From: an uncultured Actinomycetota bacterium
GTDB lineage: Bacteria > Actinomycetota > Actinomycetes > Mycobacteriales > Mycobacteriaceae
DNA: 32,000 nt
Reading direction: 5' to 3'
Assembly: GCA_963809515.1 (NCBI GenBank)
Contig: CAWEKA010000020.1
Coordinates: forward strand, 2,046 to 34,045
The position numbers and the translations under genes are program-made. Positions 3,766 through 30,926 of the stretch are shown in pieces. A model generated the notes under the pieces. It saw only the letters and a program-made list of their open reading frames with translations, was not told where the DNA came from and searched no databases. Position 1 is the stretch's first letter; every line of letters starts with the position of its first letter.

Positions 3766-3781
3766 TCTGTACCCTGTGCGG

Positions 3782-5619: not shown

Positions 5620-5631
5620 GGTCGTGAGCCG

Positions 5632-8585: not shown

Positions 8586-8746
8586 AACCGCCTCCTCCGT
8601 TGAATCAACGAAAGTCTCGATGCCTACGGGAGTCTCTAAACCCTGGCCGCGCGGGCCGGCGACGCAGCACGGACGCGACCTACCACCTGGAAGGCAGACG
8701 GGACCGCCGCGACGGCCCCGCCTCCCGATCGGATACCGACGCCGGT

Positions 8747-10003
8747 TCAGGCCCCACTTGACATCGGCACACCCATGCCGGGATCGATCTGCGCGGGTCC
8801 GTTGGCCGAGGGACGGACGTCGATGTCGAAGATCTCTGTAGGGATGTAGACCGTCGAACACGAGTTTGGGATGTCCACGACGCCGGACAGCCTGCCCTCG
8901 ATCGGCGCCGAACCCAGAATCATGTAGGCCTGGATACGGCTGTAGCCGAACTTTTCGAGGTAGTCGATGGCGTGCAGACAGGCCCGCTGGTAGGACAGGT
9001 GCGAGTCCAGATAGTGCTGGACGTCATCGAGCGTCACCGAGGTCCCGGAGAACGCCAGCCACCGGCTGAACTGCGGGTCGGTGGTGCCCGGCATGAAGAT
9101 CGCATTCTCGCCGACGCCGTAGGTCTCCATCCCGCCCTTGATCAGGTCGACGTGCAGGTCGATGAACCCACCCATCTCGATGGCGCCGCAGAACGTGATC
9201 TCGCCGTCTCCCTGCGAGAAGTGCAGGTCGCCCATCGAGAGGTTGGCGCCGTCGACGAAGACCGGGTAGAACACCCTGGTCCCCTTGGTGAAATTCTTGA
9301 TGTCCTGATTGCCGCCGTTCTCCCGCGGGGGGGCGGTGCGGGCGGCCTCGGCGGCAGCCCGCTTGAATTCCGCGCCGGAGAGACTGCCGAGGATCGCGGA
9401 ATCCGGCAGGGGCGGCAGCGCCAGCGGCGGCACCCGGTCCGGATCGGTGTCGATCAGAGCCTGCTCGCGGGCGTTCCACTTCGCGAGTAGGGCGGCCGAG
9501 GGCGCGGTCCCCATCAGCCCCGGGTGCACAATGCCGACATAGGAGACGCCCGGCACGTGGCGCGAGGTCGCGACCCCGCCCTGGAAGTCCCAAATCACCT
9601 TGTAGGCGTCGGGGAATTGCTCGGTGAGGAACCCACCACCGTTCTTGGTAGCGAACACGCCGGTGTAGCCCCAGCCCTGGCCGGCCAGCGGCCCCGAATC
9701 CTCCTGCGGGATCGGGCCGACGTCGAGGATGTCGACGATGAGCAGGTCGCCGGGCTTGGCGCCCTGCACGGCGATCGGCCCGCTGAGTACGTGCACAGAC
9801 GGCAGCGGCGCGTTGAGAACATCATCGGCTGAGTCGTCGTTGTGGATCGCGCCGTCGAACCATTCGCGGCAATGAACGCGGAACGAGTCACCAGGTTTGA
9901 CCTGTACTTGGGCCGGGATGTCCGGATGCCAGCGATTGTGGCCAACTATCTGCTGCTCGGTGAACTTCTTCGTGGAATCGAGTGGAAACACTACCTGCGG
10001 CAT
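8747..10003 (-). CDS. Acetamidase/formamidase-family amidase (FmdA/AmdA family)
   Basis: ATG at 10003-10001 has a GGGAGA RBS, giving 418 aa. 'GHNRWHPDIP', 'SGPIAVQGAKPGDLLIVDILD', 'GWGYTGVF', 'HPGLMGTAPS', 'GGNQDIKN' and 'LSMGDLHFSQGDGEITFCGAIEM' are the blocks I recognise from mycobacterial acetamidase and Methylophilus formamidase. Confidence 0.9.
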   Translation of the reverse strand: MPQVVFPLDSTKKFTEQQIVGHNRWHPDIPAQVQVKPGDSFRVHCREWFDGAIHNDDSADDVLNAPLPSVHVLSGPIAVQGAKPGDLLIVDILDVGPIPQEDSGPLAGQGWGYTGVFATKNGGGFLTEQFPDAYKVIWDFQGGVATSRHVPGVSYVGIVHPGLMGTAPSAALLAKWNAREQALIDTDPDRVPPLALPPLPDSAILGSLSGAEFKRAAAEAARTAPPRENGGNQDIKNFTKGTRVFYPVFVDGANLSMGDLHFSQGDGEITFCGAIEMGGFIDLHVDLIKGGMETYGVGENAIFMPGTTDPQFSRWLAFSGTSVTLDDVQHYLDSHLSYQRACLHAIDYLEKFGYSRIQAYMILGSAPIEGRLSGVVDIPNSCSTVYIPTEIFDIDVRPSANGPAQIDPGMGVPMSSGA

Positions 10004-10051
10004 CAGATCTCCCAACTGCCTAGTGGGCGCTCGACCATGAGTGGTCGCTCG

Positions 10052-10085
10052 AGACACATTATTCCCAAATGGGAATAATGTGTCT
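10052..10085. promoter_or_regulatory. Perfect AT-rich inverted repeat (16-nt arms, 2-nt centre); candidate operator overlapping the amidase promoter
   Basis: AGACACATTATTCCCA-AA-TGGGAATAATGTGTCT lies 49-82 nt upstream of the amidase ATG at 10003. It is AT-rich in a GC-rich genome, and one arm contains a TAATGT (-10-like) hexamer on the - strand. Confidence 0.6.
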
Positions 10086-10422
10086 GAACGTACTCTTTCG
10101 GCGGCGAGCGTCAAGCCCCCATGTCCAACTCGGCCGGTGAATAGACCCGTACTCACACACACTGCTCGGACGCCGTAGCGCACGGGCGAAAGTGCCAGCA
10201 GACTCCTACCCGACCGAGATGCACTCGCCGCCGTCTACGAGCGCGTCGGCGGCACTTCGTAAGGAGTTTCGCGTTTCATCTCGCACCGGTTTACTTCAAG
10301 ATGGCCGTCATCGCACGAGGAATCGACCCATTGGCACCCGCGGAGCCGGGGAGACCGAGGCTAGTGGCGCGTTTGGTGTGGGAAACGCATCGGAGAGGAC
10401 AGTTTCGCGAAACAGGGGCGCG

Positions 10423-11550
10423 TTATCGGACTCGGGCGATGACATCGAGCTGAACGCCGTGCGCTGCCGCGAGGTGCACGGGGTGGCGCGCCGACCCGTG
10501 CTCGAGGTCGACGGGCCCGTGCGGCGAATCCCAACCCCAGCCGTCGAATGCCCGGCGCGCATCCTGGACGGTAGGCACCGAGCTGCTGGCGATGCTGGCG
10601 AGCAATCGCACACCAGAATAAGTGGTTTCGGCCATCGTTCCCGGCGGCGGAGCCACCGACTCACCTATCGGCCCCACGCCGTTGAGCAGGTCGAAGGCAC
10701 GCGCGAAACCCGTGGAGAACTCAACGGCTGACGCGGTCCCGAGGCCGGCGAACCAGCCTGCCGAGATGAACAGATTCGCGGTCGCTTCGGGGCCACTCGC
10801 GATAATCACCGTCTCGTCGGTGAATGGACTGAACCGGGTGACTGTCGCGTCAAGCCCCCTGAGCGCAAAGGCCCGGTTGAACCGGACGGCGTCGGAACCC
10901 ACTAGGAGGGTTATGACGCCTTGCGCGCCACTGTAGACGAGCGCGTCGAGCACCCGTTCCCAGGCGGCAGGACTCTCAGTGCCCAACGGCAGGAAGACCT
11001 CGCCCAGAATTGCAATATCGGTGTAGCGCAGCCCGATTCGGGTTGCCGCGGCAGAGCCTCGCGGCCAGACGTAGTCGTTGCCCACAATAAACCACCGGCG
11101 GAGTCGCTGTTCTGTGCGCAACCATCGCAGCGACGCCACGATCTGATCGCCGGGGACCTCTCCGCTGCACAGCACGCCGTCGGATCGCTCACCGCCTTCG
11201 TATGCGGCCGCATACACGTAGGGCACCCGCCCGCGGACCACCTTGGCGATTGCCTGACGCGCATTCGACAAATGCCACCCGGTGACGGCGTCGATCGCCC
11301 CCGAATTCAGCAGTGCGCCGATGTTGGCGGCTACGGTCGACGGATCACCGCCGGCGTCGACGTGCACAAAGTCCACGGTTCGTCCTGCGACTCCGCCGGA
11401 AGCATCGATCTCGGCTGCGGCCAGCTCGGCCGCTGCCCGGCATTCGAGCCCGAACAGGCCCGCCGGACCGTGGCGCGGGAGTGCAAGAGCCACGCGAAAA
11501 CCGCTTGATCGGGATGTGTCAGGCTCGAATTCCGGCGCGCAATCTGGCAT
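10423..11550 (-). CDS. amiC: AmiC-like cytoplasmic amide-binding sensor (type 1 periplasmic-binding-protein fold, no signal peptide)
   Basis: ATG at 11550-11548, 375 aa. 'DAGGDP', 'AAAYEGGE', 'IVGNDYVWPRGS' and 'LLVGSDAVRFNRAF' parallel Pseudomonas AmiC blocks (GGDP, YEGFE, GSDYIYPRES). There is no N-terminal hydrophobic leader. Confidence 0.75.
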   Translation of the reverse strand: MPDCAPEFEPDTSRSSGFRVALALPRHGPAGLFGLECRAAAELAAAEIDASGGVAGRTVDFVHVDAGGDPSTVAANIGALLNSGAIDAVTGWHLSNARQAIAKVVRGRVPYVYAAAYEGGERSDGVLCSGEVPGDQIVASLRWLRTEQRLRRWFIVGNDYVWPRGSAAATRIGLRYTDIAILGEVFLPLGTESPAAWERVLDALVYSGAQGVITLLVGSDAVRFNRAFALRGLDATVTRFSPFTDETVIIASGPEATANLFISAGWFAGLGTASAVEFSTGFARAFDLLNGVGPIGESVAPPPGTMAETTYSGVRLLASIASSSVPTVQDARRAFDGWGWDSPHGPVDLEHGSARHPVHLAAAHGVQLDVIARVR

Positions 11551-11610
11551 GCTGAGGCTTCCCCAGGGACGGCTTGATGACACGTGGGGACTTGTTGCCG
11601 AAGGCGGTTT

Positions 11611-11982
11611 ATGGAAGAGGTCGAGGACATACTCGCGTTGCTCCGGCGGGCTTCCCTCGTCGGGTCGAGCATCGAGGACGCGCTGGCCGGTACCCAACTC
11701 TCTGTTGATCGCTGGCGCGCGCTCGCCTACATCAGGTCCAGCCCCGGGTGCTCGATGTCCGACGTGGTTGATGCCCTCGTCGTCGCCTCGACGTCCGCAA
11801 CAAGGATCGTTGACTCGCTCGTTGAGATCGGCGCCGTCTTCCGAACGATCTCTCAGCAGGATCGGCGTCGGGCCACCTTGCACTTGTCCTCGCATGGGTT
11901 GGCCCTCCTCGGTGATGTCGAGCCGGCGATAGCGCAGATCTGCAAGAGTATTCCGAGAGATTCCTTTCTACAGATCTCCTGA
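11611..11982 (+). CDS. MarR-family transcriptional regulator
   Basis: Divergent from the AmiC-like gene. 'LSVDRWRALAYIRSSPGCSMSDVVDALVVASTSATRIVDSLVEIGAVFR...DRRRATLHLSSHG' is a MarR winged-helix pattern. The start is ATG 11611, with GTG 11584 as an alternative. Confidence 0.7.
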   Translation: MEEVEDILALLRRASLVGSSIEDALAGTQLSVDRWRALAYIRSSPGCSMSDVVDALVVASTSATRIVDSLVEIGAVFRTISQQDRRRATLHLSSHGLALLGDVEPAIAQICKSIPRDSFLQIS

Positions 11983-12157: not shown

Positions 12158-12448
12158 TCACGGTCTCGGCAGGCGCTGCAAAGCCGGGTTCTGTGTCGCC
12201 ATTGGGCTCCGCGTCCGGCCATGACGTGGCGGCAATGACGTCACCACTTCGGGCTCATCGCTGGTTTTCTCGGTGCGGTCGATCGCGGCCACCAACGCGC
12301 GAGGCGCGAGCGAGAGCATCGGCGCGCGGAAGACCCGCGCTGACTCGTTGTTACACACTGGGCACTGCGACTGCGGCGCTGCCGTGCCCATCGGCAGGCT
12401 CACGTCGAAGACACCATCCTGGACACATCGGTATTGGTATGTGACCAT
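12158..12448 (-). CDS. FmdB-family zinc-ribbon putative regulatory protein
   Basis: ATG at 12448-12446 is preceded by GGAGGA, giving 96 aa. The N-terminal 'MVTYQYRCVQDG...CPVCNNESARVF' is the CxxC...CxxC zinc-ribbon signature (Y.YRC...CP.C) of FmdB-like proteins. Confidence 0.75.
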   Translation of the reverse strand: MVTYQYRCVQDGVFDVSLPMGTAAPQSQCPVCNNESARVFRAPMLSLAPRALVAAIDRTEKTSDEPEVVTSLPPRHGRTRSPMATQNPALQRLPRP

Positions 12449-12845
12449 ACGCAGCTGTCCTCCTACCCGCCTGATCCTTCTTGTGCGCGAGCGCAATAGC
12501 GCAAATGTCGCGAACCGTCCAGCCAGGCGCGAAGTGCCTTGCACCCTCGGCTGAGCATACGCACGAGGACCGCGGCGGTCTAGGCCGCTGGGCGAGGGGA
12601 CGCCGTGGAATCGTGTGGACGCCGAGGCGGCTGTCGTGCATGGCAGCCCGTAGCCGGGGTTCGACGCCGTGCCGGCGGTACTCTTCGCGTCGAACAGACC
12701 GACGGAGAATCCGAATGCTGCAGCGGCGGAGTGCAATAGCGGTTGCAGTGGCGGGGTGGAACCCTTGCGGCAGCGGCGGAATGGACGTGACGCTGTCGCC
12801 GCGTATGCGCCAACGAGGAAACCACGCGCTGAACGTCCAATGGAC

Positions 12846-14552
12846 TCAGTGACCGAGCGCATCCGCTGTTCGGGCCATCCCACGCTCCACAGCCGCGATG
12901 ATGCTCGGGCGCAATTCAGCCGCCGGAATGATCGAGTGGACCGAGCCAACCTGGCGGGCCCGCTCCACGTTATGAACAGCTTCAAACTCCGCTGCCACCT
13001 CGCCGAGCTTGTCCGAACGCACGGCCGTCCGGGTGGCGCCGAGCTTTACCCGCACGCTGGCACTCGCCGCGTCGTCCGTGCACGCGGCAAGTTGTGCCTC
13101 GAGCTCGCGGACGGCCGGGTCTGCTGCGGTACGTGCGTTCACGTCTCGCGTGAACACCACCGCTGCCGCGGGTGCACCACCGATAACCGAGGAAAACGAT
13201 CCCTCGACTGCGAGCACTTCCATGTTCGCGTTCAGCGCATTGGAGAACACCACGAAAGCTCCGCCGTGATAACGCGAGATCACGCAAAACACGATCGGTC
13301 CGTCAAAGTTGACGATGGCTCGGCCGATTTCGGCGCCGTTCTCGAGCTGGATGTTCCGAAGGGACTCGGGTGAACCGTCGAAGCCCGACAGGTTTGCCAG
13401 CACCACGAGGGGTCGGCTTCCGCTTGCGGCGTTGATCGCGCGCGCGGTCTTCTTGGAGGACTGCGGGAACAGAGTGCCCGACGTCCACTGGTCCGGCCCG
13501 TCGGCGGGCACCCACCCCTTACGCGGGATGACCCGCGATTCGATGCCGATGACAGACACCGGAATTCCGGCCATGTGCGCGTCGAACACCACGGAGGTAT
13601 CGGCGTCGGCCATATCGGCCCACCGCTCGAGTACCGGATGATCCTGGTCGACCACCGAACGCATGACCGTCCGAATGTCGAACGGCTTCTTGCGGTCTTT
13701 GTTGGTGCTGTCGGAGAAGATGTCGCCGACGGTCGTGAAGTCGCTGGACGGATGCACGTGCGGAAAGGTGCGGACGTCGCGGTCGACCGGGTCGGAAGTG
13801 TCGGCGCGGCGCGGGAAGCGTTCTCCGGGTGCGACATACGCGTGGTCGTAGTGGACAAACAGTATTTCGCAGGCTGCCTGAAGGTTCGGCGCCCAATACT
13901 GGGCCTGCCCATTGGGTCCCATCACGCGGTCATAGCCGCCGATGCCGAAGTTGTCCTCCGCCGAGACGCCACCGGAGTAATCGAGGGATTGCTTGCCGGT
14001 GAGGACCATCGCGCTGTCGGGCGTCATGACGAGAATGCCCTTGGTGTGCATCAGCATCGTCGCCTCGGCATTCCAATACGGCTGCGCGCCGACGTTGATT
14101 CCGGTGACGATGACGTTGATCTCACCGCCGTTCTGGGTAAAGGTGATGATTCGGCGCAGCGCGCGCGACACCCAGTCCATGTTCTCGGTGCCGCTCTCCA
14201 TCGAAATGGTGGCGCCGGAAGACAACGCGAACCACTCGACCGGTACCGACAGCTTCTCGGCGAGATCGATCGCCGCGACCACCCGAGCGCATTCGGCTTC
14301 GGCCACCGTGCCCAGCGCTTTCGTCGGGTCACCGAACAAGGCGATGCGTGTCATTCCCTCGGGGTAGCGGGTTGTCGGTCGCGACACCATGCCGACGATG
14401 ACGCCGGCGGTGTTGCGTCCATACGGACGGTCGACGGGTACCAGCGTGCCGGACGCGTCGAGGTCATATTCGACGAATGTGCCGTCGTTGCCGGTGAGAA
14501 GTGGGATCAGTTCGTACGGATAGACCAAGCCGCGAGCTTGTGAACGCTGCAC
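12846..14552 (-). CDS. Carboxyltransferase (N+C subdomains) of a eukaryote-type acetyl-CoA carboxylase; possibly the 3' part of one frameshifted gene
   Basis: 568 aa counted from GTG 14552, which has a poor RBS. 'GLVYPYELIPLL', 'RIALFGDPTKALGTVAEAE', 'EWFALSSGATISMESG', 'VTGINVGAQPYWNAEATM' and 'LANLSGFDGSPESLRNIQLENGAEI' are acyl-CoA carboxyltransferase blocks resembling the eukaryotic ACC CT. Confidence 0.8.
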   Translation of the reverse strand: MQRSQARGLVYPYELIPLLTGNDGTFVEYDLDASGTLVPVDRPYGRNTAGVIVGMVSRPTTRYPEGMTRIALFGDPTKALGTVAEAECARVVAAIDLAEKLSVPVEWFALSSGATISMESGTENMDWVSRALRRIITFTQNGGEINVIVTGINVGAQPYWNAEATMLMHTKGILVMTPDSAMVLTGKQSLDYSGGVSAEDNFGIGGYDRVMGPNGQAQYWAPNLQAACEILFVHYDHAYVAPGERFPRRADTSDPVDRDVRTFPHVHPSSDFTTVGDIFSDSTNKDRKKPFDIRTVMRSVVDQDHPVLERWADMADADTSVVFDAHMAGIPVSVIGIESRVIPRKGWVPADGPDQWTSGTLFPQSSKKTARAINAASGSRPLVVLANLSGFDGSPESLRNIQLENGAEIGRAIVNFDGPIVFCVISRYHGGAFVVFSNALNANMEVLAVEGSFSSVIGGAPAAAVVFTRDVNARTAADPAVRELEAQLAACTDDAASASVRVKLGATRTAVRSDKLGEVAAEFEAVHNVERARQVGSVHSIIPAAELRPSIIAAVERGMARTADALGH

Positions 14553-17500
14553 CTTCTGCGCGTACCGTCGAGTGGGCGCAACGGATCGGTCGGCGGCGCC
14601 GTCACATTCGCGACGACGCCGGCGCCCGGCGTGTACGAGAAGCGAATCGCCACTCGCCTCGGCTGCGACGTCTCGTCGTCCTTGACGCTCGCCAGGATCG
14701 TGATCTCCTCCAGCCCGGCATTGAGCGCCAGCGGTGCCATGCGTCGCACGACCGCGGGGGCACGAAGTGCCGGGATGTCGAGCAACGGCCAGACGTAAAG
14801 CGCGACGCGGTTGTTGTCGAGCCGCTTCTTACCCCGCTGGGTCTGCACCCGCCGAATGCCGTCGAGACACGCTGCGAGGGTGCGCTCGATGGCCGGGACC
14901 CCGATCATCTCGCCGGCTTCGTCTAGATGGGGGGTCACATCGCGAACCTCGGCCAGTGCGATGAGGCGCTCATCGGACGGATTCTCGTTGGCCACCACAT
15001 GGAAGAGGTACGTGCCTGCCGCGGCGGGTAAGCGAGTGCCGTTGAAGTTCTTCAGCCGCCACAAATCGAGGCGTTGCCCTGTGAGCGGGTGCATGTCGCG
15101 AATAGCCCGGTCCTCCGCCAGGCCACCCTCTTGCGCCGGACGGAATGTAAACTGACGCAGCTCGCGGCCGACCACCGTTACGGTCACTCGGCGCCAACTG
15201 GTCGCGCTGGGGTGCGCCGCAAGCGCGTCACGCAGCTGAGCAGACAGTTCGTCGCCGTCGGTGGGCGCGTCCGGCCAGCTCAGATAGATGTCGACAACGA
15301 GGTTGTCCACCTTCGGACCGGCGATGGCATCGACGGCGCCGAGCGTTGCCGACAACCGCTCGCGGTCTGCCACAGTCGATACCAGGTGCAGCTGCTCTCC
15401 GGCCAATTCGTAACTGCCGGTGACGAACTGGCAACCCGCCTGTTCGAAGGTCTTGACGTCTTCGAGCGCACGGATCTCGTAGCACTGACGCGTGACGACC
15501 TCCAGCAGTGGGCCGGGATTGGAAATGCGTTGTGCCAGGAGATCGATCAATAGAGCAGGCGTTGCGACAAGCGCATCGATGCGCGCCGCATAGTCCGGCG
15601 CGTCCGGATTGTCGGCGAGGTATTGAAGGGCGTCCCGCACGCTGTCGTGAATCTTCTCGCGCGCCTTATGGATCTGCGGTTCGTCGAACAAGCGGAACCG
15701 TAGGTTACGGGCGATGTCGCCGATAACCGGATAGCGCACCTGCGTCGCAATGATCAGGCGCTCCAGTACCTCACCCACCGCACTGGTAGAAGCGGATGGG
15801 ACCGCGTCGGCGGTGAGCCAGCGCCCGAGCATCGCGGTGATCACAGGGACCTGGTTCTCCATGCGCTGCAATGCGAGGAATAGCCGGTAGACCGCTTCTT
15901 CCAACTCGGGGCCGGGCTCGAGCGTGTCGATGTCGTAATTACCCAGCGCGCGAACGATTTTGGCGCGAAACGCCGGCGGCAGCCCCTCCACCTCGGCGTC
16001 GAGCGAATGCAGGAAAGAATGGAAGTGCTCGCGTGGGCTGTGGACGCGCTCGTCGGTGTCCTCTTCGTCGAGAGTGGGACGGTTGCGGGAAATCTCGCAG
16101 ATATCGGCGAAGGTGTCCAGCAGTCCGAGTTCGGCCTGGACCAGTTCCGGGTCGTCGAGAGGAAGGCTGCCACGAAGGGCGTGATACTCGGCAAGCAGGA
16201 TGCGTGCGCGGTCGGCGCTCACGTCGTAACCGGCAATTTGGGTGCGCAGTTCGCCGAGTCGCCCGAGGGCCTCGGTGCGCGGGTTCGCGTCAGCCTCCCT
16301 TGGCTGCGTACGGAACCGAACTCGCGGCGCAGCTTCGGTTTCCGTCGTTTCAGCGACCTGGTCGAAGCGCAGCAATGCCGCGCCCGCATCGACCTGGTTG
16401 TTGACCGTAGCGAAGATCTCACGAACGCGCCCCGGGGATTGTGCGCGCATCGCGGTTTCCATCTTCATGCTTTCCAGGACGACGAGCGTGGCACCCGCCT
16501 CGACTTCGTCGCCCACGGTCACGGGGATGGCAACAACCACGGCCGGAGCCGCGGCGCGCACGAGGCCCGCTTCGTCCTGGCTGATGCGGTGACTAACGCC
16601 GTCGACCTCGACAAGGAATCCAGTGGGGCCCGCGACGGTGACGATGTGGAAGCGCTGGTCGCCAAAGGAGAGTCGACTTTCGAATTCGCTGAGCCGTTCG
16701 ACGTCGACGACGAGTTCGCCACTGTCACCGTCGATTCGGTAGCTGCGCGGACCGATCTGTCCGACGGTGAGCTTGTAGGCCTGGCCCTGGTAGTTGAGTT
16801 CCACGGTCCGGCCGATGGCGTGCGTGGCGCGCGGTCGACCACCGCGTGCCGAGGCCAGGAAACCGGCACGTTCGAGGCTTTCTTCGGATTCGTACGCGTC
16901 GACCGCGGCGGCGATGAGCGCGATATCGGCCACCGGCGTGGGCCCGGTTGCCATTCCAGCGCCAGTGCGGTCGAGCCAGCCCGTGTCGGCCGAGGCGGAG
17001 ATGACCTCGTCGCGGTCGAGGAGATCGAGAAGGAAGGATTTGTTGGTAGTGCCTCCGTCGATGACGACAGTGGTCTCACGCAGGGCGGTGCGCAGCCGCG
17101 CCATGGCTTCGTTTCGGTCGCGACCCCAGGCGATGATCTTGGCGACCATCGAGTCGTAGTCGGGTGGGATGACGTCACCTTGCGCAATGCCGGTGTCAAC
17201 GCGAGTACCGGAACCGAGCGGGAACTTCAGCAGCCGCACAGTGCCTGGGGCGGGCGCAAATTCGTTGTCGGCGTCCTCGGCGTTGAGCCGGGCCTCGACG
17301 GCGTGGCCGAACTCGGGAGGGCATTCTCCGACGAGAGAACCGCCGCCGGCGACGAAGATCTGCAGCTTGACCAGGTCGATGCCAGTGGTGACTTCGGTGA
17401 TCGGGTGCTCGACCTGCAGCCGGGTGTTGACCTCGAGGAACGTGAAGGATTTCTGATCCGGTTGGTAAAGGTATTCCACGGTGCCGGCGCCGCGGTACCC

Positions 17501-18346
17501 GGCGGTGCGGACAAGTTCGGCCGACACGCCTCGCAGGTGATCGGCCTGCTCCTTTGTCAGCAGCGGGGAGCTGGATTCCTCGATCACCTTCTGGTTCCGG
17601 CGCTGGATGGAGCAGTCGCGCACTCCAGGGGCCCAGACATTGCCGTAGTTGTCGGCGATGACCTGGACCTCGACGTGGCGGGCATCGGTGACGAGGCGTT
17701 CGACGAATACGACAGGGTCGCCGAACGAGCGCTCGGCTTCGCCCTGCGTGCGCTCGAGGGCGACTTCGAGTTCGTCGGGGGAGAACACCTTGCGGATGCC
17801 GCGGCCGCCGCCGCCACTCCGGGCTTTGATGATCAGCGGATAGCCGATGGCCTCGGCGTGCCGGCGGGCGTCCTCGCGGGTCCCGACTGGGCCACCGCTC
17901 CACGGTGCGAGCGGTACGCCCACCTTCTCGGCCAGAAGTTTGGCCTCGACCTTGTCGCCCAGTGTCCGCATCGCGGCTGGGCTCGGCCCGATGAACGTGA
18001 GGTTCAGACGCGCGCAGAGCTCTGCGAAGGCGATGTCTTCGGCGACGAAACCCCAGCCCACCCACACCGCGTCGGCCTTGGATTCCAGCAGAGCGCGCTC
18101 GAGCTCGGCGTGGTCGAGGTACGCGATGCCCGCCGATGTTTTGCGAAGCGTCACGCCTTCGTCGGCTTGGCGTACGAACATGGCGCGACGCTCGGCGTCG
18201 GTGTGCAGTGCGATGGTTTTGATGCCGCAGTCGTACTCGGCATTCAGCTCACGTACGGCCCGAATCAGGCGTACCGCGGCCTCACCTCTGTTGACCACCG
18301 CAATTCGACTGGGGAACGTGATTGTCAACTCCTCGGCGTCAGACAT
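14507..18346 (-). CDS. Acetyl-CoA carboxylase, biotin carboxylase + BCCP + eukaryote-like central domain
   Basis: The start is ATG 18346, with TTG 18364 as an alternative. The BC domain shows 'IAVVNRGEAAVRLIRA', 'GGGGRGIR' and 'NTRLQVEHPITE'. The biotin attachment site is 'ESMKMET', with its Lys codon at 16463-16465. About 600 further residues are colinear with the ACC central domain ('IRDMHPLTGQRLDLWRLKNFNG...'). Confidence 0.85.
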   Translation of the reverse strand: MSDAEELTITFPSRIAVVNRGEAAVRLIRAVRELNAEYDCGIKTIALHTDAERRAMFVRQADEGVTLRKTSAGIAYLDHAELERALLESKADAVWVGWGFVAEDIAFAELCARLNLTFIGPSPAAMRTLGDKVEAKLLAEKVGVPLAPWSGGPVGTREDARRHAEAIGYPLIIKARSGGGGRGIRKVFSPDELEVALERTQGEAERSFGDPVVFVERLVTDARHVEVQVIADNYGNVWAPGVRDCSIQRRNQKVIEESSSPLLTKEQADHLRGVSAELVRTAGYRGAGTVEYLYQPDQKSFTFLEVNTRLQVEHPITEVTTGIDLVKLQIFVAGGGSLVGECPPEFGHAVEARLNAEDADNEFAPAPGTVRLLKFPLGSGTRVDTGIAQGDVIPPDYDSMVAKIIAWGRDRNEAMARLRTALRETTVVIDGGTTNKSFLLDLLDRDEVISASADTGWLDRTGAGMATGPTPVADIALIAAAVDAYESEESLERAGFLASARGGRPRATHAIGRTVELNYQGQAYKLTVGQIGPRSYRIDGDSGELVVDVERLSEFESRLSFGDQRFHIVTVAGPTGFLVEVDGVSHRISQDEAGLVRAAAPAVVVAIPVTVGDEVEAGATLVVLESMKMETAMRAQSPGRVREIFATVNNQVDAGAALLRFDQVAETTETEAAPRVRFRTQPREADANPRTEALGRLGELRTQIAGYDVSADRARILLAEYHALRGSLPLDDPELVQAELGLLDTFADICEISRNRPTLDEEDTDERVHSPREHFHSFLHSLDAEVEGLPPAFRAKIVRALGNYDIDTLEPGPELEEAVYRLFLALQRMENQVPVITAMLGRWLTADAVPSASTSAVGEVLERLIIATQVRYPVIGDIARNLRFRLFDEPQIHKAREKIHDSVRDALQYLADNPDAPDYAARIDALVATPALLIDLLAQRISNPGPLLEVVTRQCYEIRALEDVKTFEQAGCQFVTGSYELAGEQLHLVSTVADRERLSATLGAVDAIAGPKVDNLVVDIYLSWPDAPTDGDELSAQLRDALAAHPSATSWRRVTVTVVGRELRQFTFRPAQEGGLAEDRAIRDMHPLTGQRLDLWRLKNFNGTRLPAAAGTYLFHVVANENPSDERLIALAEVRDVTPHLDEAGEMIGVPAIERTLAACLDGIRRVQTQRGKKRLDNNRVALYVWPLLDIPALRAPAVVRRMAPLALNAGLEEITILASVKDDETSQPRRVAIRFSYTPGAGVVANVTAPPTDPLRPLDGTRRRCSVHKLAAWSIRTN

Positions 18347-18350
18347 CGGC

Positions 18351-20303
18351 TTATCCGAACGCAAGGGCCGCGTCGGACCCGGCTGTCATGGGAAGCGATT
18401 CAGCGTCGGCGACCGACTCGCGAATTGGCTCCGCCTCACCGGCGGGCGCGACGACGGCAGGGTCGATCCGCAGAATCGCATAGCCGGCAACAGCGCCAGC
18501 GCCGAACCCCGGGGCGAAAACCCGGGAGGGCGTGGTGATCACACCGTCGCGGACCGCGTCGTCGATCGCCAGCGGAATGCTCGCCGAGGAGGCGTTGCCC
18601 ACCCGTTCGATGTTGAAATACAGCTGATCTGGGGACAGACCGGCGCCCGTCGCGAGGTCGATCACCATGGTCTTGTTCGCCTGGTGCGGGACGATCAAGT
18701 CGATGCTTGCCAGAAGTGATTCTGCGACCCCATCCGGGTCGGGCAGGGCCCTGATGTCGTCGAGCATCTGCCTGAGGTAGCGCCCGGCGAGGGCCTTCAC
18801 CTCGGGGCCGAAGACGGTGACATTGTTGGCGAACGCGGGGTTGGGCCACAAGATCGAATTGACCTGACTCACCGGACCGCTGGCATATGTCTGCATGTAT
18901 TCGATATCCGGCGGTGCGCCCTCAGGTGCGACGCCGAGGACAATGGCGGACGCGCCGTCGCCGAAGATCATCCGGGACGGCCGGACGTTCCCGATCTTGT
19001 CGGAGAACTTTTCCGCGCAGACCACAAGCACCGGCCGCTGTACCAATTGCAGAATTCTCAGGGCCTCGGCCAGCCCGTAGCTGAGGCCCGCACACGCAGC
19101 GACGAGGTCGAACGAGCAGTGCGTCTGCTGGATGCCCAACGCGCCGGAAAGCCAGGTCGCGACTGACGGTAGCAGCCGAGAGCTGGTGCAGGTGCACACG
19201 ATAACCGCCCCGACTTGGTCTGGACCCACCTGAGCGTGAGCCAGCGCCGAACGGGCGGCTCGCAACGAGAGGTCCTCGAGGCTCTCCGACGTGTAACGAC
19301 GCTGCTCGATGCCGGTCTTGGCAAGGATGTCGTCCGCAGACATGGGGGACCAGTTGTAGGCGCTGTTGCGGATGAGGTCCTCGTTGGTGCACACCAGATC
19401 GCCATACGCCGCGGCGATCGCCTCGATGCGCGGTTGCACTGCCAAGTCGTTGCGCACGTCGATCGCAGGGTAGGGGCGAATCGGCTCGCAAATCTTGGGG
19501 GAGGCCGGGTGGGCCTTCTTCGGGACGTGCCCCGACGCGATGCGGGAAAGGAAATGTTGGACCTCGCTGTCACGCGGACGAAACACCACCACGTAATCGT
19601 CGTCGTGCAACTCTTCGACAGGGACCAAAGTGGCCTTGTCGCGAGCCCATGGGTACTGGTTGTGCAGGACCATCGACCAGCGCCGTAGCGCCTCCAGCTC
19701 GGCCACATCCTCATAGCAGTCGACGATCTCGGTGTAGCTGTACCGGCGGAAGTCGGGGTCGTATTCAGAAAGCCGCAGAGTCTGATTACGGGGATGAGAC
19801 AGCAGTTCGGCAACCGTGGGTACGACGGCCGATAGCTTCGTCGCGTGGTTTCTGCGATGGCCGAACACGTCGAAGAGGATCTCGAAGATGCTGTCTTCGA
19901 CCTCGGCGTCCCACTGCGCCGGAAGACCCGGATACGCGGACATCACCGCCGTCACCTTCGTTTCGCGGTCCTCCCACGGCGTCAGGATCGGTACGAAGAC
20001 GTCGTCGCGGCTACGCGGCACATCGGCCCACCGGGTGGGCTGGACGTCGTACATCGTTATCTTGAAACGATTGGCCCAGAACAGGTTCAGCGCCATATCC
20101 CGCATCAGCTCGAACTTGCTGGTGTAGGCGCCGGTCTTGATCCGCTCAAGGATGTCGGTCCCGGTGGGAGCCTTGGCGTCGAAGTCCCGCCGGACTACCG
20201 CATCGAGCTGCTCAAGGCTTTCGAAGGTGGAGAAGTCGAGATCAGGAAAACAATTCGATGGAAAGACGATCTTGCCATGCGTGTTGATTTCATAGGAATG
20301 CAT
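18351..20303 (-). CDS. KAS III (FabH-type) condensing enzyme fused to an unrecognised ~290-aa N-terminal domain
   Basis: ATG at 20303-20301 has an AGGTGA RBS, giving 650 aa. The C-terminal ~340 aa carry 'AKTGIEQRRY', the active-site Cys in 'DLVAACAGLSYG', His in 'VPHQANKTM' and Asn in 'IERVGNASSASIP'. I could assign no motif to the N-terminal ~290 aa. Confidence 0.85.
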   Translation of the reverse strand: MHSYEINTHGKIVFPSNCFPDLDFSTFESLEQLDAVVRRDFDAKAPTGTDILERIKTGAYTSKFELMRDMALNLFWANRFKITMYDVQPTRWADVPRSRDDVFVPILTPWEDRETKVTAVMSAYPGLPAQWDAEVEDSIFEILFDVFGHRRNHATKLSAVVPTVAELLSHPRNQTLRLSEYDPDFRRYSYTEIVDCYEDVAELEALRRWSMVLHNQYPWARDKATLVPVEELHDDDYVVVFRPRDSEVQHFLSRIASGHVPKKAHPASPKICEPIRPYPAIDVRNDLAVQPRIEAIAAAYGDLVCTNEDLIRNSAYNWSPMSADDILAKTGIEQRRYTSESLEDLSLRAARSALAHAQVGPDQVGAVIVCTCTSSRLLPSVATWLSGALGIQQTHCSFDLVAACAGLSYGLAEALRILQLVQRPVLVVCAEKFSDKIGNVRPSRMIFGDGASAIVLGVAPEGAPPDIEYMQTYASGPVSQVNSILWPNPAFANNVTVFGPEVKALAGRYLRQMLDDIRALPDPDGVAESLLASIDLIVPHQANKTMVIDLATGAGLSPDQLYFNIERVGNASSASIPLAIDDAVRDGVITTPSRVFAPGFGAGAVAGYAILRIDPAVVAPAGEAEPIRESVADAESLPMTAGSDAALAFG

Positions 20304-20379
20304 TGCCGATCACCTATTTCGCTGCGAAGTGTGCGAGTCGAAAAGAACGCGATGCGGCGGAGGACAAACCGAATGGGTC

Positions 20380-21225
20380 TCACATGTCCAGACCGCCGTT
20401 TACCCCCCAAACCTGTCCAGTGATGTAGCCCGAAGCGTCTGCGGCCAAGAAGTGCACCACTCGTGCGACCTCCCAGGGCTGGGCCAGCCGGCGCATCGGG
20501 ATGCTGCCCTTGATGCGGTCTAGGACTTTTTCGGGAATGCTCTCGACCATTTCGGTCGCTACGTACCCGGGTGTGATCGCGTTGACCGTGACGCCGATAC
20601 CTTCTTCCGTCAACTTGCCCGTACGTCCCTTCTGGAAGCACGCCTCGCGCGCGAGTGTCTTCGTCAGGCCGAACAACCCGGCCTTGGAAGCCGCATAGTT
20701 TGCCTGGCCGATGGCGCCCGTCTCACCAATCACCGAGGAGACCATCACGATCCGGCCGCTGCCGCGCTCGAGCATGTGCGCCAACGCGGCCTGGGCGAGG
20801 AAGAAGGCCCCGGACAGGTTGACTCCGATGACCTTGTTCCATTCGTCTTCGGTCATTTTGGCCACTGTCTTGTCGATCGTGATGCCGGCGTTGTTGATCA
20901 GGATGTCCAGGCGGCCGTGCAGGTCGATGACTTCCTGGATTGTTCGTCGACAGTCATCCGCGCTCGCGACATCGCCATGATGGATGCTGACCTCGGCGCC
21001 ATCGCTGGCCGCCGACAACTCGGCGAGGAACTTCCGCGCGTGTTCGCTATTCCTGCCGTAGCCCGCGGCCACCGTTGCGCCCTGGCTGACCAGGCTCTTA
21101 CTGATCGCCGCACCGATCCCGCGGGTACCACCGGTCACGAAAGCGACGCGCCCGCGGAGCTTTGTTCCACGAGTTGCCCCGAACCGAGACTCGCCGGCCT
21201 CCTCAATGGTCGTCGTGGCCGTCAT
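20380..21225 (-). CDS. Short-chain dehydrogenase/reductase, acetoacetyl-CoA reductase (PhaB)/FabG-like
   Basis: ATG at 21225-21223 has a GAAGGGGA RBS, giving 281 aa. It has 'VAFVTGGTRGIGAAI' (TGxxxGxG), 'NNAG' and 'YAASKAG' (YxxxK), and a C-terminal 'ITGQVWGVNGGLDM' typical of PhaB/FabG. Confidence 0.85.
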   Translation of the reverse strand: MTATTTIEEAGESRFGATRGTKLRGRVAFVTGGTRGIGAAISKSLVSQGATVAAGYGRNSEHARKFLAELSAASDGAEVSIHHGDVASADDCRRTIQEVIDLHGRLDILINNAGITIDKTVAKMTEDEWNKVIGVNLSGAFFLAQAALAHMLERGSGRIVMVSSVIGETGAIGQANYAASKAGLFGLTKTLAREACFQKGRTGKLTEEGIGVTVNAITPGYVATEMVESIPEKVLDRIKGSIPMRRLAQPWEVARVVHFLAADASGYITGQVWGVNGGLDM

Positions 21226-21769
21226 TGTGATCCCCTTCGCCGTCGTTCGATCGATTAATGGCCGGTCCTGTCGACAGGTTCTGCGCCGAACGTTGATTGA
21301 ACGAAAATGCTCGAGAATAAACGTCCGCGCCACTGGAACGCGCGAGGAGTCCACTGAGTGAAATAACCTAGTCCACCTTACGAATTGAAGCGCTGCCAAT
21401 GTGCACGGGTGTCCAGATGCCGCTTGGGTGGTGGGTGGCGGTGACCGATTTGTGTTTGGGTGACTCACGATCTGCCGAGGAGCCAGTGGTCGGACTGAGT
21501 TCAATTCGTTCAGCGGCCGCGAAGACAGCTGGCGCGCCGACGACCGCTGACGTTCGCGAATCAGCCGTCCGCGCCCGAGCGGTTCGACACACTCTTTGAG
21601 GAGCACGTTTCCGAGGAAGTATTACGAATCATCGAGCTCGATGAAATCGGACGCTACGTCCCACACTCACCGAGCGAACCCGCTGCGAATTATCCGAAGA
21701 CGTGCGCGCGCGCCAGCGAAGTCTCACAATATTGACGCAGGGGTCTGTGACTTCAGGCCGGAGGAACCG

Positions 21770-27900: not shown

Positions 27901-29415
27901 GCCTCGATCTGGCGCAGCGCGCTGGACGTCGAGCAGATCGGAGCGGGCGACAACTTCTTTGCGCTTGGTGGGCATTCCCTGCTTGCGGCACAGGTGCGTT
28001 CGCGAATCCGTCAGTACCTCGGGGTCGAACTCCCGCTGAACGTACTGTTCGACGACCAGACGCTGGCCGACCTGGCCCGACGGATCGAGGAGACCGCGAC
28101 GGGCACTGTGGAGGCGCCGCCGCTTCGGCCGGCGTCTCGCACCCAGGAGCTGCCCGCTTCCCATGCGCAGGAAGCGATGTGGCGCGCCGAACGGGACGAC
28201 CCCGGATCCGCCGCGCACTGGATAGACGTGTCGATCAGGATCAACGGGCCGCTGGATGCGGCGGCGATCGTGCGTGGTGTCCAGGACACCGTGGCACGGA
28301 ACGAATTGTTGCGCACGATCTTTCGTCCCTCCGAGGATTCGTCGAGGGTGATGTTGACTCAGGTGATCCTCAAGTCGTACGTGCCCGAGGTCCCGATCCT
28401 GGAAAGCATTCCCGAGGCCGGCCCGACGCCCGACGCACGGGAATGGCGCGACCTCGGCACCCAGCCGCCATTTCGGGCCGACGTCACGCGATTCGACGAA
28501 GACCATCACGCTCTTCGGCTACGCGTCCATCGAATCCTGGTCGATGGGTATTCGATGCGGCTGCTACTGGGCGAGCTCGGCGGACTCGTGGCCAGTTCGA
28601 TGGGTTTCGACGACTTTCCCCTACTGGATGGGCAGTTGCAGTATGCCGACTACGCGGTCTGGGAGCGGTCCTGGCTGACCGGTGACGCGCTGACGAGGCG
28701 TATCGACCACTTCCGCCGTCAGTTCGGCGCTGCGGACCTCCCGCCTGCCCTACCCACCGACCACCCGCGTACCGATCAGCCGCACCGACGCGGACACCAG
28801 TTCGCTTTCGAGTTTCCGCCAGCGGTTGCGGCTGCGGCGCGGGCGCTGGCCGTGCACGAGCATGCGTCGCTGTACTCGGTACTGCTCGCGGCCTTCGCGA
28901 CGGCCTTGGGCACATACGCAGACCAGCGCACGGTCGTCATTGCCGCACCGCTGACCAGACGCACCGATCCGGCGACGCAGCTCATGATCGGGCCGTTCAT
29001 GAACACCGTCCCGCTGCGTATCGACCTCGATGCCGGGACGGAACTGCCCGCGCTCGTCCGAGACGTCAAGACCACAGTGCTCGGTGCGCTTTCGAACCAG
29101 GACGCGCCATGGCACCACGTGCTCGAAGCGCTGACGGAAGAGCACGGCCCGAGTGCGCTCGGCATCGGCGAGGTCGTGTTCCTGATGGACGACCCGGTGC
29201 CAGGGGAACTCGCCGCCGGTGGACTCGCGGTATCCCGCATCCCGGCCGACCCTATCGTCCTACGCCGGGAGCTGACGGTCGCGATGAATACCAGGGACGA
29301 CCAGATCACTGGAACGGTGACATACGATGGAACGCTGTTCGAAGCCCGGTCGATCGCGTCCGTCGTATCGAATTTCATTGCGGCCCTGCATGTATCAGGC
29401 GCCGAAAAAGTCTAG
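21937..29415 (+). CDS. Hybrid type I PKS-NRPS, domain order KS-AT-ACP-C-A-PCP-C
   Basis: The start is GTG 21937 with GGAAG 10 nt upstream; ATG 21961 is an alternative. Motifs, in order:
- KS: 'DTACSSS' (Cys 22465-22467), 'EAHGTGT', 'NIGHLEAASG'.
- AT: 'GQGSQ', 'GHSVGQ' (Ser 23824-23826), 'HAFHS'.
- ACP: 'LGMDSL' (Ser 24856-24858).
- C: 'MHHIVTDGWS'.
- A: 'YTSGSTGRPKG', 'NMYGQTE', 'YASGD', 'RQVKIRGLRVEPAEI', 'PNGKLD'.
- PCP: 'GGHSL' (Ser 27976-27978).
- Terminal C-like domain: 'HRILVDGYS'. Confidence 0.9.
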   Translation: MTATRTFAMLGYALRFPGATDAGEFWQLMADGRDAVSVVPADRWDADEFFDPDPDAPGKMVARRAAFVDDVSGFDAPFFGVSAREAMFMDPQHRLMLETTWSAIEHAGMAPSGLAGTQTGVFMGLSTHEFAGMIVRLSRLEDIDFYSGTGCSAAAGAGRISFRLGLKGPAMIVDTACSSSLVALHQACQALDSGDCDLALVGGVNVILTPIPMINFSRARMLAPDGRCKTFDAAADGYVRGEGCGVVVLKRIDDAVRDCDSIRAVIRGSAVNQDGASGGLTVPNGVAQQQVIATALRRAGVEAADVDYLEAHGTGTSLGDPIEVQAAGAVFGEGRDPDRPLLIGSVKTNIGHLEAASGIAGVIKVALALEHEVLPKHLHFTEPSPYIPWDSLPVRVVDKATPWPRTRRPRIAGVSSFGFSGTNAHVVVEEPPDVDSTTDSAADSGRGEYRLLPLSARTPEALAALASRYRDWMDANPDVTLADICATAGAGRSHFEHRAALVVDSRRRARRLLGALHEDRPAPGLTRGSSSNRPKTAWLFPGQGSQFPGMARTLFEREPVFRETAQRCSDVVDGVLPRSLLEVMFDTGPDGEEALRNTIFAQPALFAVEMALARLWQSWGIEPDVVVGHSVGQYAAACVAGVFGLDDGARLIAERGRLFGSLPAGGRMVAVFADADKVEQCAAGYPRLSVAAYNGASTVLSGPGEDTERAAAALSDAGIRCEWLQTSHAFHSALLDPVLDEFESYANNVEYSPPQLTFVCNRTGEVLTRRSRLDAQYWRRHTRQPVRFADSVATLADLGCAVLMELGPQPILTAAAMQIWPDVAPTPQTIASLRRAIDDRRCLTEALAAAYVSGHRLDFAGRCPRPNRPVDLPTYPFQHRTYWFPAYTAPELNSRARAGASWSGDSEVGLPQSSEPVEAPSVQAEATDWLTKEPPEQRLTRITDVIVAELANALRTSVDEIDPEAEFISLGMDSLTAMDLRRRLQKALGIEIPASLFFAHPTVTALAEGLLAVWLDNSSDKEKRHVAIPRAARDGELPLSHAQEQLWFLHELLPSSSAYNVAARIDIPGPVDRHVLQVSFDAMMARHEVLRTTCRSVEGVPQAVLGTPQPFDLPFEQVCDADVSAVAEREAAVPFDIAEGPLLRARLLGLGEQRHVLVLTMHHIVTDGWSFRVLLRDLGLIYQALERGEPMPLTDLPIQYQDYAQWQRDRLRGADFDAHLDFWRNNLAGAPPLELDTDRPRPKTPTFRGARTQFALGSERATALRGLCRAEKVTVSVPLFAAFAAVLARYSGQDDVVVGTLTANRTRVETEDLIGLFVNALPVRIRLDGDPDGTELLSRVRQDMVEVLAHQDVPFDLIVKATAPDRDANRNPLFSVQLVVQPGAGGAELSGLGLEIAEIGTHTAKRDLTFTFFDDDLLTGHVEYAAELFDAVRIDRLIAHFRVVLDAMVSDLGLRVSELPMLTEPESSYYQPISSPRATAARSISELFEMTVDRMPDAVAVTVAGRSLTYRELDSAANRLARRLRSRGIDVGAAVALCVDRTAAMAIGMLGILKAGGVYVPIDPSYPKCRVDDMLAEAGAVLMLGEGDVDGGELHQESSERLETATGPDAVAYVMYTSGSTGRPKGVAVSHGSVVEYAETFGREVGISAEDVYLETASMSFSSSIRQLLVPFAVGAQVVIATTEERGDPAELLCRISESDVTVADLVPTMVRGLVDAAANDAVPPPNRLRLLLTASEPLRLGVVREWRDRFGSGARWINMYGQTETTGIVSLHRVGQPDGGDQCVVPIGLPRGNVSMYILDKAMRPVPPGVSGELFIAGPALARGYLGDPELTAERFVRAPWNPDDRLYASGDVVRQHWDGTIGYRHRTDRQVKIRGLRVEPAEIDRVLLEHPGVGEAITVVQSPDGVGGVLVAYYAPEAAPVSMRELRTHARRQLPEHMVPAVFVAMDGLPQTPNGKLDLAALPDVAITRDQDVEYVAPRGDVEEALASIWRSALDVEQIGAGDNFFALGGHSLLAAQVRSRIRQYLGVELPLNVLFDDQTLADLARRIEETATGTVEAPPLRPASRTQELPASHAQEAMWRAERDDPGSAAHWIDVSIRINGPLDAAAIVRGVQDTVARNELLRTIFRPSEDSSRVMLTQVILKSYVPEVPILESIPEAGPTPDAREWRDLGTQPPFRADVTRFDEDHHALRLRVHRILVDGYSMRLLLGELGGLVASSMGFDDFPLLDGQLQYADYAVWERSWLTGDALTRRIDHFRRQFGAADLPPALPTDHPRTDQPHRRGHQFAFEFPPAVAAAARALAVHEHASLYSVLLAAFATALGTYADQRTVVIAAPLTRRTDPATQLMIGPFMNTVPLRIDLDAGTELPALVRDVKTTVLGALSNQDAPWHHVLEALTEEHGPSALGIGEVVFLMDDPVPGELAAGGLAVSRIPADPIVLRRELTVAMNTRDDQITGTVTYDGTLFEARSIASVVSNFIAALHVSGAEKV
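21955..23226 (+). other. Ketosynthase domain (catalytically competent Cys-His-His)
   Basis: The Cys in DTACSSS is at 22465-22467, the His in EAHGTGT at 22870-22872, and the His in NIGHLE at 22990-22992. The domain ends near 'GTNAHVVVEE'. Confidence 0.85.
23548..24380 (+). other. Acyltransferase domain, malonyl-CoA-type motifs
   Basis: It has 'FPGQGSQFPGM' and 'GHSVGQ' (not GHSQG), plus 'HAFH' at 24118-24129. HAFH is the motif classically associated with malonyl rather than methylmalonyl (YASH) specificity. Confidence 0.75.
24745..24981 (+). other. Acyl carrier protein domain
   Basis: 'EFISLGMDSLTAMDLRRRL' carries the phosphopantetheinyl Ser at 24856-24858. Confidence 0.8.
25045..26300 (+). 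other. NRPS condensation domain (canonical HHxxxDG)
   Basis: It has the C1 motif 'LSHAQEQLWFL' and the C3 motif 'MHHIVTDGWS' (25417-25446). Confidence 0.8.
26385..27830 (+). other. NRPS adenylation domain with a non-canonical A4 motif (FSSS in place of FDxS)
   Basis: The A3, A5, A7, A8 and A10 motifs are present as listed for the CDS. The A4 region reads 'ASMSFSSSIRQ', with a Ser codon (26920-26922) where the alpha-amino-binding Asp235 normally sits. Confidence 0.75.
27885..28092 (+). other. Peptidyl carrier protein domain
   Basis: 'DNFFALGGHSLLAAQV' carries the phosphopantetheinyl Ser at 27976-27978. Confidence 0.8.
28150..29412 (+). other. C-terminal condensation-like domain with variant active-site motif HRxxxDG
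   Basis: It has a C1-like 'ASHAQEAMW' and a C3 variant 'VHRILVDGYS' (28525-28554). It is the last domain of the protein, and no TE or R domain follows. Confidence 0.7.
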
Positions 29416-29429
29416 GCCGAGGACGACGG

Positions 29430-30590: not shown

Positions 30591-30926
30591 ATGACGACAG
30601 TTCAAGATCTGATGGATCGAGCATCTGCGATGATCCGCGATGACCCGGACAAGGCGCGCAAGTTCGGTGGGGTGTGCAAGTTCGCGCTGAGCGGCGAGGG
30701 CGGGCGGACCTTCATCATCGACCTCACCGACGATCCGCGGGTGATCGACGGTGACGGCGACGCGCAGTGCACCATCAGCATGGCGCTACCCGATTTCATC
30801 AATTTGGTGGAGGGCCGAGCCGACCCGCGCGGATTGTTCTTCCTCGGAAGGCTGCGCATCAAGGGTGACTGGAAGCTCGCCATGAAGTTCAAGAAGCTCA
30901 GCGAGATCATGGGTGGCCGAAAGTGA
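30591..30926 (+). CDS. SCP2 (sterol carrier protein 2) domain protein
   Basis: 111 aa. 'FALSGEGGRTFIIDL', 'AQCTISMALPDFINLVEGRADPRGLFFLGRLRIKGDWKLAMKFKKL' matches the SCP2 fold consensus (..DF..L..GK..P..AF..GKLKI.GDM..A.K...). The stop overlaps the next gene's GTG start. Confidence 0.8.
   Translation: MTTVQDLMDRASAMIRDDPDKARKFGGVCKFALSGEGGRTFIIDLTDDPRVIDGDGDAQCTISMALPDFINLVEGRADPRGLFFLGRLRIKGDWKLAMKFKKLSEIMGGRK

Follow-up and report, generated by a model that had tools for sequence, protein, structure and literature searches.

The textbook route to polyhydroxyalkanoates (PHA) leads from a thiolase through a reductase to a synthase; the reaction of the thiolase can be reversed, is unfavourable thermodynamically and is subject to inhibition by CoA. 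NphT7, the acetoacetyl-CoA synthase of Streptomyces sp. CL190 (EC 2.3.1.194), consists of one domain (~330 aa), belongs to the ketoacyl-acyl carrier protein (ACP) synthase III (KAS III) type, joins acetyl-CoA and malonyl-CoA irreversibly to give acetoacetyl-CoA, and feeds the mevalonate pathway. Engineers have swapped the thiolase for NphT7 and added extra malonyl-CoA supply to drive flux, and the resulting NphT7-PhaB-PhaC route to polyhydroxybutyrate is known as an engineered 'non-canonical' pathway (PMC11539682). In the literature searched, a malonyl-CoA-dependent route to PHA was met only as this engineered pathway; full-text searches found no paper on a natural PHA route combining an acyl-CoA carboxylase (ACC) with a KAS III enzyme, nor on the gene fusion reported here. 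The fusion is encoded by a 650-aa open reading frame (ORF) in a 32,000-nt stretch of contig CAWEKA010000020.1 (assembly GCA_963809515.1) from an uncultured actinomycetote of the Mycobacteriaceae; this whole stretch is referred to below as the window, and its features are listed in Table 1.

The gene lies between a gene for a PhaB-like short-chain dehydrogenase/reductase (SDR) and one for a single-chain ACC. What the analysis suggests as new is a KAS III enzyme with a family-specific partner domain that has no known fold match, set in a thiolase-free module for PHA precursors. We favour, at a little better than an even chance, a reading in which this protein forms acetoacetyl-CoA on a malonyl-CoA-dependent path to 3-hydroxybutyryl-CoA and PHA, with the N-terminal domain in an accessory role; substrates, product and the part played by that domain would follow from the genomic setting described below.

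A sequence-only reading of the window had described the ORF as uninterrupted, with a good ribosome-binding site and a complete KAS III catalytic set, and all of this was borne out: an AGGTGA motif precedes the ATG of the 650-aa frame, and the motifs it quoted are those around Cys404 (AACAG), His540 (PHQAN) and Asn570 (GNAS), which align with the FabH catalytic triad and are kept in 74/74 scorable orthologues. Pfam finds two KAS III domains and nothing else in the protein, ACP_syn_III (PF08545) at aa 398-459 with 39.6 bits against a gathering cut-off of 24 and ACP_syn_III_C (PF08541) at aa 532-613 with 70.6 bits against 26.6, and the KAS III domain proper extends over aa ~291-615. FabH models of NCBIfam cover aa 292-613, and FabH chains in the Protein Data Bank (PDB) align to aa 322-624 only, the first 290 residues never being covered. 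A Foldseek search with the full-length structure model likewise recovers FabH chains through the C-terminal half only (E = 1e-23, TMt 0.76-0.86). The KAS domain shares with the FabH enzymes of Escherichia coli, Vibrio cholerae (FabH2; 4wzu and 4x0o) and Yersinia pestis (4ylt) the common thiolase-fold KAS III architecture as well as the Cys-His-Asn triad, at ~27-32% identity and TM-scores of 0.76-0.86. Within the KAS domain the segment 474-499, which matches the normal cap region of FabH, has low AlphaFold2 confidence, and the shallow alignment alone may account for this.

The differences from FabH are of several kinds. The protein is twice as long, with an N-terminal domain of ~260 aa and a linker, and it misses every NCBIfam FabH cut-off (NF006829, 179 vs 249 bits; TIGR00747, 156 vs 292 bits). 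The Arg that stands five residues past the catalytic His in 4/4 aligned FabH species (HQAN(I/L/R)RI) is Thr545 here (HQANKTM), invariant in 74/74 family members, and the equivalent of FabH Trp32 is Asp325. We take the Arg to correspond to E. coli Arg249, presumably implicated in ACP docking, and Trp32 to be the residue that stacks on the CoA adenine; both changes are consistent, at the level of the alignment, with CoA-linked over ACP-linked substrates. The context of the gene is also one of CoA thioesters and PHA genes and not of fab genes: no ACP or fab genes are nearby, and the recurrent neighbours (PhaB-like SDR, PhaC and ACC) use CoA thioesters. All of this bears on the idea of a housekeeping-type FabH that uses malonyl-ACP to initiate the synthesis of fatty acids or mycolates and for which the N-terminal domain is a lineage-specific decoration. 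Its best sequence and structure matches are indeed bona fide FabH enzymes, and homologous proteins are publicly annotated as ketoacyl-ACP synthase III. The missed cut-offs, the invariant Thr and the CoA-using neighbours point the other way, as does the patchy occurrence of the family, whose N-terminal domain is present in ~519 of the 185,579 species genomes scanned and one of whose members is plasmid-borne, in Mycolicibacterium fluoranthenivorans (a tblastn search of the PLSDB plasmids gave no match). We regard a housekeeping role as very improbable, and the assignment favoured here, to acetoacetyl-CoA formation, would correct the public annotation.

The same sequence-only reading had noted ~290 extra N-terminal residues that could be assigned to no family. 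This holds, and the region can now be resolved into a folded domain of aa ~1-258 and a linker of ~35 aa. Residues 1-290 have no match in Pfam or NCBIfam. When the N-terminal domains of 35 family members were scanned individually against Pfam at E<=10, two isolated chance matches appeared and none was consistent, and the family profile of the domain gave 0 matches among all PDB sequences at the same threshold. The structure prediction and fold search proposed with that reading gave a confident fold and no relative: AlphaFold2, supplied with a 35-sequence alignment, folds aa 1-258 into a compact alpha/beta domain (predicted local distance difference test score, pLDDT, 87; predicted template modelling score, pTM, 0.81), and Foldseek finds no match to it in the PDB or in BFVD. 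The full-length model agrees with this picture (pTM 0.77). In the linker, aa 263-275 fall below a pLDDT of 50, and P274, P277, Y278, V283 and R284 are conserved. An origin of the domain by internal duplication, or as a degenerate thiolase half, was considered and rejected, with hhalign probabilities below 1% for the N-terminal domain against the KAS domain and for N1 against N2.

That the extra region is genuinely coding and under purifying selection is seen from its median identity of 65% across 75 genomes and from the nucleotide differences within it, which pile up at third codon positions (for example 33/22/97 at the three positions against locus L025). Mean column identity among 75 intact orthologues is 0.78 for the N-terminal domain and 0.84 for the KAS domain, and in deep branches conservation falls off faster in the former. 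The residues that stay invariant there are N7, G10, P20, R39, L66, W76, R79, W92, D94, L127, A205, R208 and P243; mainly Arg, Trp, Pro and Gly are kept, and there is no invariant Ser, Cys or His nucleophile.

For this domain the sequence-only reading had offered a substrate-selecting, docking or second catalytic module. With the pathway otherwise as favoured here, it could be a second catalytic domain of new fold, such as a decarboxylase, thioesterase or acyltransferase with malonyl-CoA or acetoacetyl-CoA as its substrate. The confident, compact fold would suit such a role, as would the 72 positions that are invariant among the 75 orthologues and that include charged and polar clusters (RDFxxKAP, MVLHNQYPW). 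Most of the candidate catalytic residues nevertheless vary in deep branches, where D40 changes to E, H214 is lost in protein P0339, and neither D101 nor E136 is retained; the domain has no similarity to any enzyme family, and the proposed pathway lacks no obvious chemical step. A second active site is therefore unlikely in our estimate. The fast loss of candidate catalytic residues, together with the existence of a split-gene form (below), leads us to favour an accessory, probably non-catalytic unit, and here our account is at its weakest. Such a unit may complete the surface that binds the CoA nucleotide, assemble with the KAS dimer or with the ACC, or exert allosteric control.

The fusion is widespread. 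More than 120 full-length homologues of ~650 aa with 77-100% identity are present in public data, and an exhaustive profile search gave 420 representative clusters, in which all Pfam-scanned full-length matches combine the N-terminal domain with KAS III. The 80 loci that were retained out of the 519 genomes are all from Actinomycetota and include Mycobacterium, Mycolicibacterium, Geodermatophilus, Blastococcus, Modestobacter, Nocardioidaceae and others. Divergent members of the family are found on contigs of lower GC content (47-56%). The fusion is mostly actinomycetotal and is genuine. Intact ~650-aa ORFs occur in 75 independent genomes, including those of cultured type strains of Geodermatophilus, Modestobacter, Blastococcus and Mycolicibacterium, and the linker is conserved. 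We consider the chance that an assembly or frameshift artefact has joined two genes to be negligible, even though frameshift-type errors do occur elsewhere, in the ACC gene of the window and of its closest relatives, and one lineage truly encodes the two parts as separate genes.

The architecture has two informative variants. Protein P0246 (881 aa; L086/L087, 10001-12646) carries an SDR domain at the C-terminus in addition to the N-terminal domain and KAS III. At locus L089 (8001-9898) the two parts are split, with a stand-alone N-terminal domain (P0388, 269 aa; hhalign probability 99.8%, E = 1e-27 against the domain profile) whose gene lies upstream of, and overlaps by 4 nt, that of a stand-alone KAS III of 363 aa with 46% identity to the KAS domain in the window. 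Given the triple-fusion and split-gene forms, the N-terminal domain is a partner unit of this KAS III clade: it is an autonomously folding unit and the obligate partner of these enzymes, to which it is fused in all but a few genomes. The neighbours of the split pair are genes for a condensation-domain protein, an S15 peptidase, an SDR, a thiolase and an adenylating enzyme. We had also considered that the domain anchors the enzyme to PHA granules, and have downgraded this idea because the domain persists in the split-gene lineage, where the context is not PHA-like.

The KAS III gene belongs to a self-contained three-gene module. The sequence-only reading had placed it between a PhaB-like reductase and a dedicated ACC, and both neighbours recur in related loci. 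When the window was compared by blastn with its five closest relatives (L034, L035, L020, L005 and L011), only an 8.6-kb block with the SDR, KAS III and ACC genes aligned, at 88-94% identity and with nothing on either side. As both flanks differ from those of the closest relatives, the module occurs in differing genomic contexts. No shared direct, inverted or terminal repeats were found at the synteny breakpoints, and a scan of 12000-22000 for promoters and terminators gave nothing above shuffled expectation. The SDR scores 276 bits on the acetoacetyl-CoA reductase model TIGR01829, just under its cut-off of 302. The ACC is a dedicated copy that is translationally coupled to KAS III, its ATG lying 4 nt past the KAS stop codon.

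In the window the ACC is one gene split into ORFs of 1285 aa and 568 aa by a 1-nt deletion, which alignment to L005 places at ~14566; the intact ORF of its relatives is 1831-1837 aa. The deletion sits in a run of G (GGG), and the closest relatives L020, L034 and L035 have many frameshifts in the same gene. Since such frameshifts are numerous in close relatives whose assemblies are of the same kind, the one in the window is likely a sequencing error of the long-read homopolymer type and not a sign of pseudogenisation. The layout is that of SACE_4237 of Saccharopolyspora erythraea, with the biotin carboxylase, biotin carboxyl carrier, central and carboxyltransferase domains in a single chain (~1830 aa in the relatives of the window ACC). 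SACE_4237 is a eukaryote-type multidomain ACC that serves as an essential housekeeping enzyme for fatty-acid synthesis (PMC6491548); the ACC of the window differs from it as a dedicated copy, frameshifted, and coupled to a KAS III gene in a small module.

Gene neighbourhoods were counted in the 46 related loci that have full flanks of ±10 kb. A PhaB-like SDR is adjacent in 43/46 and a single-chain ACC is present in 39/46, so that the fusion and its co-occurrence with these two genes both recur, which the sequence-only reading had proposed to check. A PHA synthase gene (phaC) is found in 34/46 loci, and 15/46 have a PHA-depolymerase-like hydrolase, which matches a PHA depolymerase model best. 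Thiolase genes are almost absent, being found within ±10 kb at only 2 of ~90 loci and not in the window. The association with PhaC recurs across at least four divergent lineages and with different forms of the synthase. In mycobacteria the PhaC is class I-like, that of locus L004 reaching 590 bits with the model for class I PHA synthases, and at L091 (6549-10811) a divergent fusion protein (P0277, 44% identity) is encoded in an operon of fusion gene, phaC, SDR and acyl-CoA synthetase genes, the first two overlapping by 4 nt. The triple fusion P0246 adjoins a class III PhaC, weak PhaE-like and phasin-like ORFs, and PhaR. The resemblance to phaCAB operons lies in the adjacent PhaB-like reductase and, in the relatives' loci, in PhaC, often the depolymerase-like hydrolase, and PhaR-like or phasin-like genes; the difference is that the ACC and the two-domain KAS III stand here in place of a PhaA thiolase, and that the window itself has no PhaC.

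Two further observations concern these neighbourhoods. In the mycobacterial loci (L001, 15105-15392; L004, 17577-17897) a conserved ORF of 95-106 aa without a family and a regulator with an HTH_3/HTH_31 domain, which we take to be of the XRE type, always lie between phaC and the ACC gene; they could be a phasin and its regulator. At L007 a thiolase (~12738-13823; 47% identity to that of L089) lies close to an SDR and KAS III pair, the only such locus among the related genomes, and a stretch of 10 kb around it showed neither an ACC nor a PhaC.

The counts also bear on the proximity of the module to a polyketide synthase-nonribosomal peptide synthetase (PKS-NRPS) gene. The sequence-only reading had put the KAS III gene within a PKS-NRPS cluster and suggested a part in forming the starter unit. 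On that view the enzyme would make or select a starter unit for the adjacent PKS-NRPS, with the SDR and ACC supplying a 3-hydroxybutyryl or acetoacetyl primer and the N-terminal domain docking or selecting. The PKS-NRPS gene is physically close, running divergently ~570 bp from the SDR gene, and its product opens with ketosynthase, acyltransferase and ACP domains and has no loading module, so that it needs an external starter; the condensation-domain protein and adenylating enzyme beside the split pair, and the lack of PhaC in the window, fit as well. Single-domain priming enzymes of the DpsC, ZhuH and CerJ type offer a parallel, being of KAS III fold and encoded near PKS genes. Adjacency to a PKS, however, is conserved in no relative of the protein described here: PKS-NRPS genes occur in 0/46 related loci, synteny with the closest relatives ends at 21394, before the PKS-NRPS gene, and the strong recurrent partner is PhaC. 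Neither the placement in the cluster nor the starter-unit role is supported by this comparison. The module is not part of the neighbouring PKS-NRPS, and we judge a starter-unit function to be distinctly unlikely.

The module, read together with its PHA-gene neighbours, suggests the following pathway. The single-chain ACC would convert acetyl-CoA, ATP and bicarbonate to malonyl-CoA. In the KAS III protein acetyl-CoA would acylate Cys404, and decarboxylative condensation with malonyl-CoA would give acetoacetyl-CoA, as in NphT7; the adjacent ACC and PhaB-like SDR, and the triple fusion with an SDR, are the reasons for inferring this reaction. The PhaB-like SDR would then form (R)-3-hydroxybutyryl-CoA, to be polymerised by a PHA synthase that is encoded beside the module in most relatives and would lie outside this window. 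The ACC and the two-domain KAS III would in this way substitute for the PhaA thiolase, making the route to PHA ATP-driven and independent of a thiolase, and the N-terminal domain may aid the binding of CoA-linked substrates or organise or regulate the enzyme. The likeness to NphT7, drawn from context, extends to the irreversible KAS III-type reaction and its continuation through PhaB and PhaC; the protein described here differs in its extra domain and in belonging to a natural module with its own ACC and PhaB-like SDR and a link to phaC.

Several points weigh against this pathway. Substrate and product are assigned entirely from context, and an ACC using propionyl-CoA as substrate would yield a different product. 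The window contains no PhaC (tblastn, E<=1e-10), nor is there one within ±10 kb in its closest relatives L005, L011, L020, L034 and L035; members of this subclade may pass the 3-hydroxyacyl-CoA to a PhaC encoded elsewhere, or put it to a different use. The ACC is frameshifted in the window, and the context of the split-gene lineage, with its condensation-domain protein, adenylating enzyme and thiolase, is not PHA-like.

More broadly, we propose tentatively, at somewhat less than an even chance, that many soil Actinomycetota and some other bacteria have a natural thiolase-independent, ATP-driven route to PHA precursors, in which a dedicated eukaryote-type ACC supplies a two-domain acetoacetyl-CoA synthase with malonyl-CoA and an N-terminal domain of undescribed fold adapts a FabH-type enzyme to CoA substrates or couples or regulates it. 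The engineered NphT7 pathway would then have a natural counterpart. If true, it would represent an overlooked carbon-storage strategy in abundant soil actinobacteria and would offer a ready-made ACC/synthase/reductase cassette of ~8.6 kb for the engineering of bioplastics and butanol-type products. It would also provide a functional lead on a domain that is widespread (~519 species) and has neither a family assignment nor a detectable structural relative.

Table 1. Features of the window; positions are counted from its first nucleotide.
Feature	Position	Strand	Basis or remark
KAS III gene ORF	18351..20303	-	Uninterrupted, ATG start, 650 aa
Shine-Dalgarno-like AGGTGA	20310..20315	-	6 nt 5' of ATG; read directly in the sequence
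N-terminal domain, mixed alpha/beta fold, no family match	19530..20303	-	aa 1-258; AlphaFold2 model, conservation
Interdomain linker	19419..19529	-	aa ~259-295; disordered first part, then conserved 'RPYPAxDVR' leading into the KAS domain
KAS III (FabH-like) condensing domain, variable C-terminal tail and stop codon	18351..19418	-	aa ~296-650; Pfam PF08545 and PF08541; FabH fold
Catalytic codons	Cys404 19092-19094; His540 18684-18686; Asn570 18594-18596	-	Alignment to FabH
Upstream SDR, acetoacetyl-CoA reductase (PhaB)/FabG-like, 281 aa	20380..21225	-	TIGR01829 AcAcCoA_reduct
Single-chain eukaryote-type acyl-CoA carboxylase, BC-BCCP-central-CT	12846..18346	-	Pfam domains; downstream of the KAS III gene
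SDR, KAS III and ACC synteny block, 8.6 kb	12829..21394	.	blastn against L034, L035, L020, L005, L011
PKS-NRPS, KS-AT-ACP-C-A-PCP-C, 2539 aa	21796..29415	+	~570 bp from the SDR gene
Rieske oxygenase	29109..30563	+	After the PKS-NRPS
SCP2-like small ORF	30591..30926	+	By eye
Two MoeA-like genes (one fused to a PBP-like domain), GntR/PBP-like regulator, PBP/ABC transporter	within 1-12500		
Urea transporter	7422..8861		
Formamidase/acetamidase	8747..10183		
Periplasmic binding protein (Peripla_BP_6)	10423..11895		
Zn_ribbon_8 ORF	within 12158..12985		Presumably FmdB-like
BC, biotin carboxylase; BCCP, biotin carboxyl carrier protein; CT, carboxyltransferase; KS, ketosynthase; AT, acyltransferase; C, condensation; A, adenylation; PCP, peptidyl carrier protein; PBP, periplasmic binding protein.

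The flanks of the module are of different character. To the right, beyond the PKS-NRPS gene and the Rieske oxygenase, a second KS begins at ~30995 on the plus strand and runs off the end of the window, with 74% identity to the first; a 440-aa ORF on the minus strand (30602..31924), which has no Pfam match, overlaps the region of the SCP2-like ORF and the second KS. The left flank (1-12500) is an unrelated block of nitrogen and molybdenum genes. Just 3' of the ACC stop codon, within the Zn-ribbon ORF, which is over-extended, an 18-nt motif (TGCTGCAGCGGCGGAGTG-like) occurs three times in tandem at 12716-12783 with a spacing of 25 nt.

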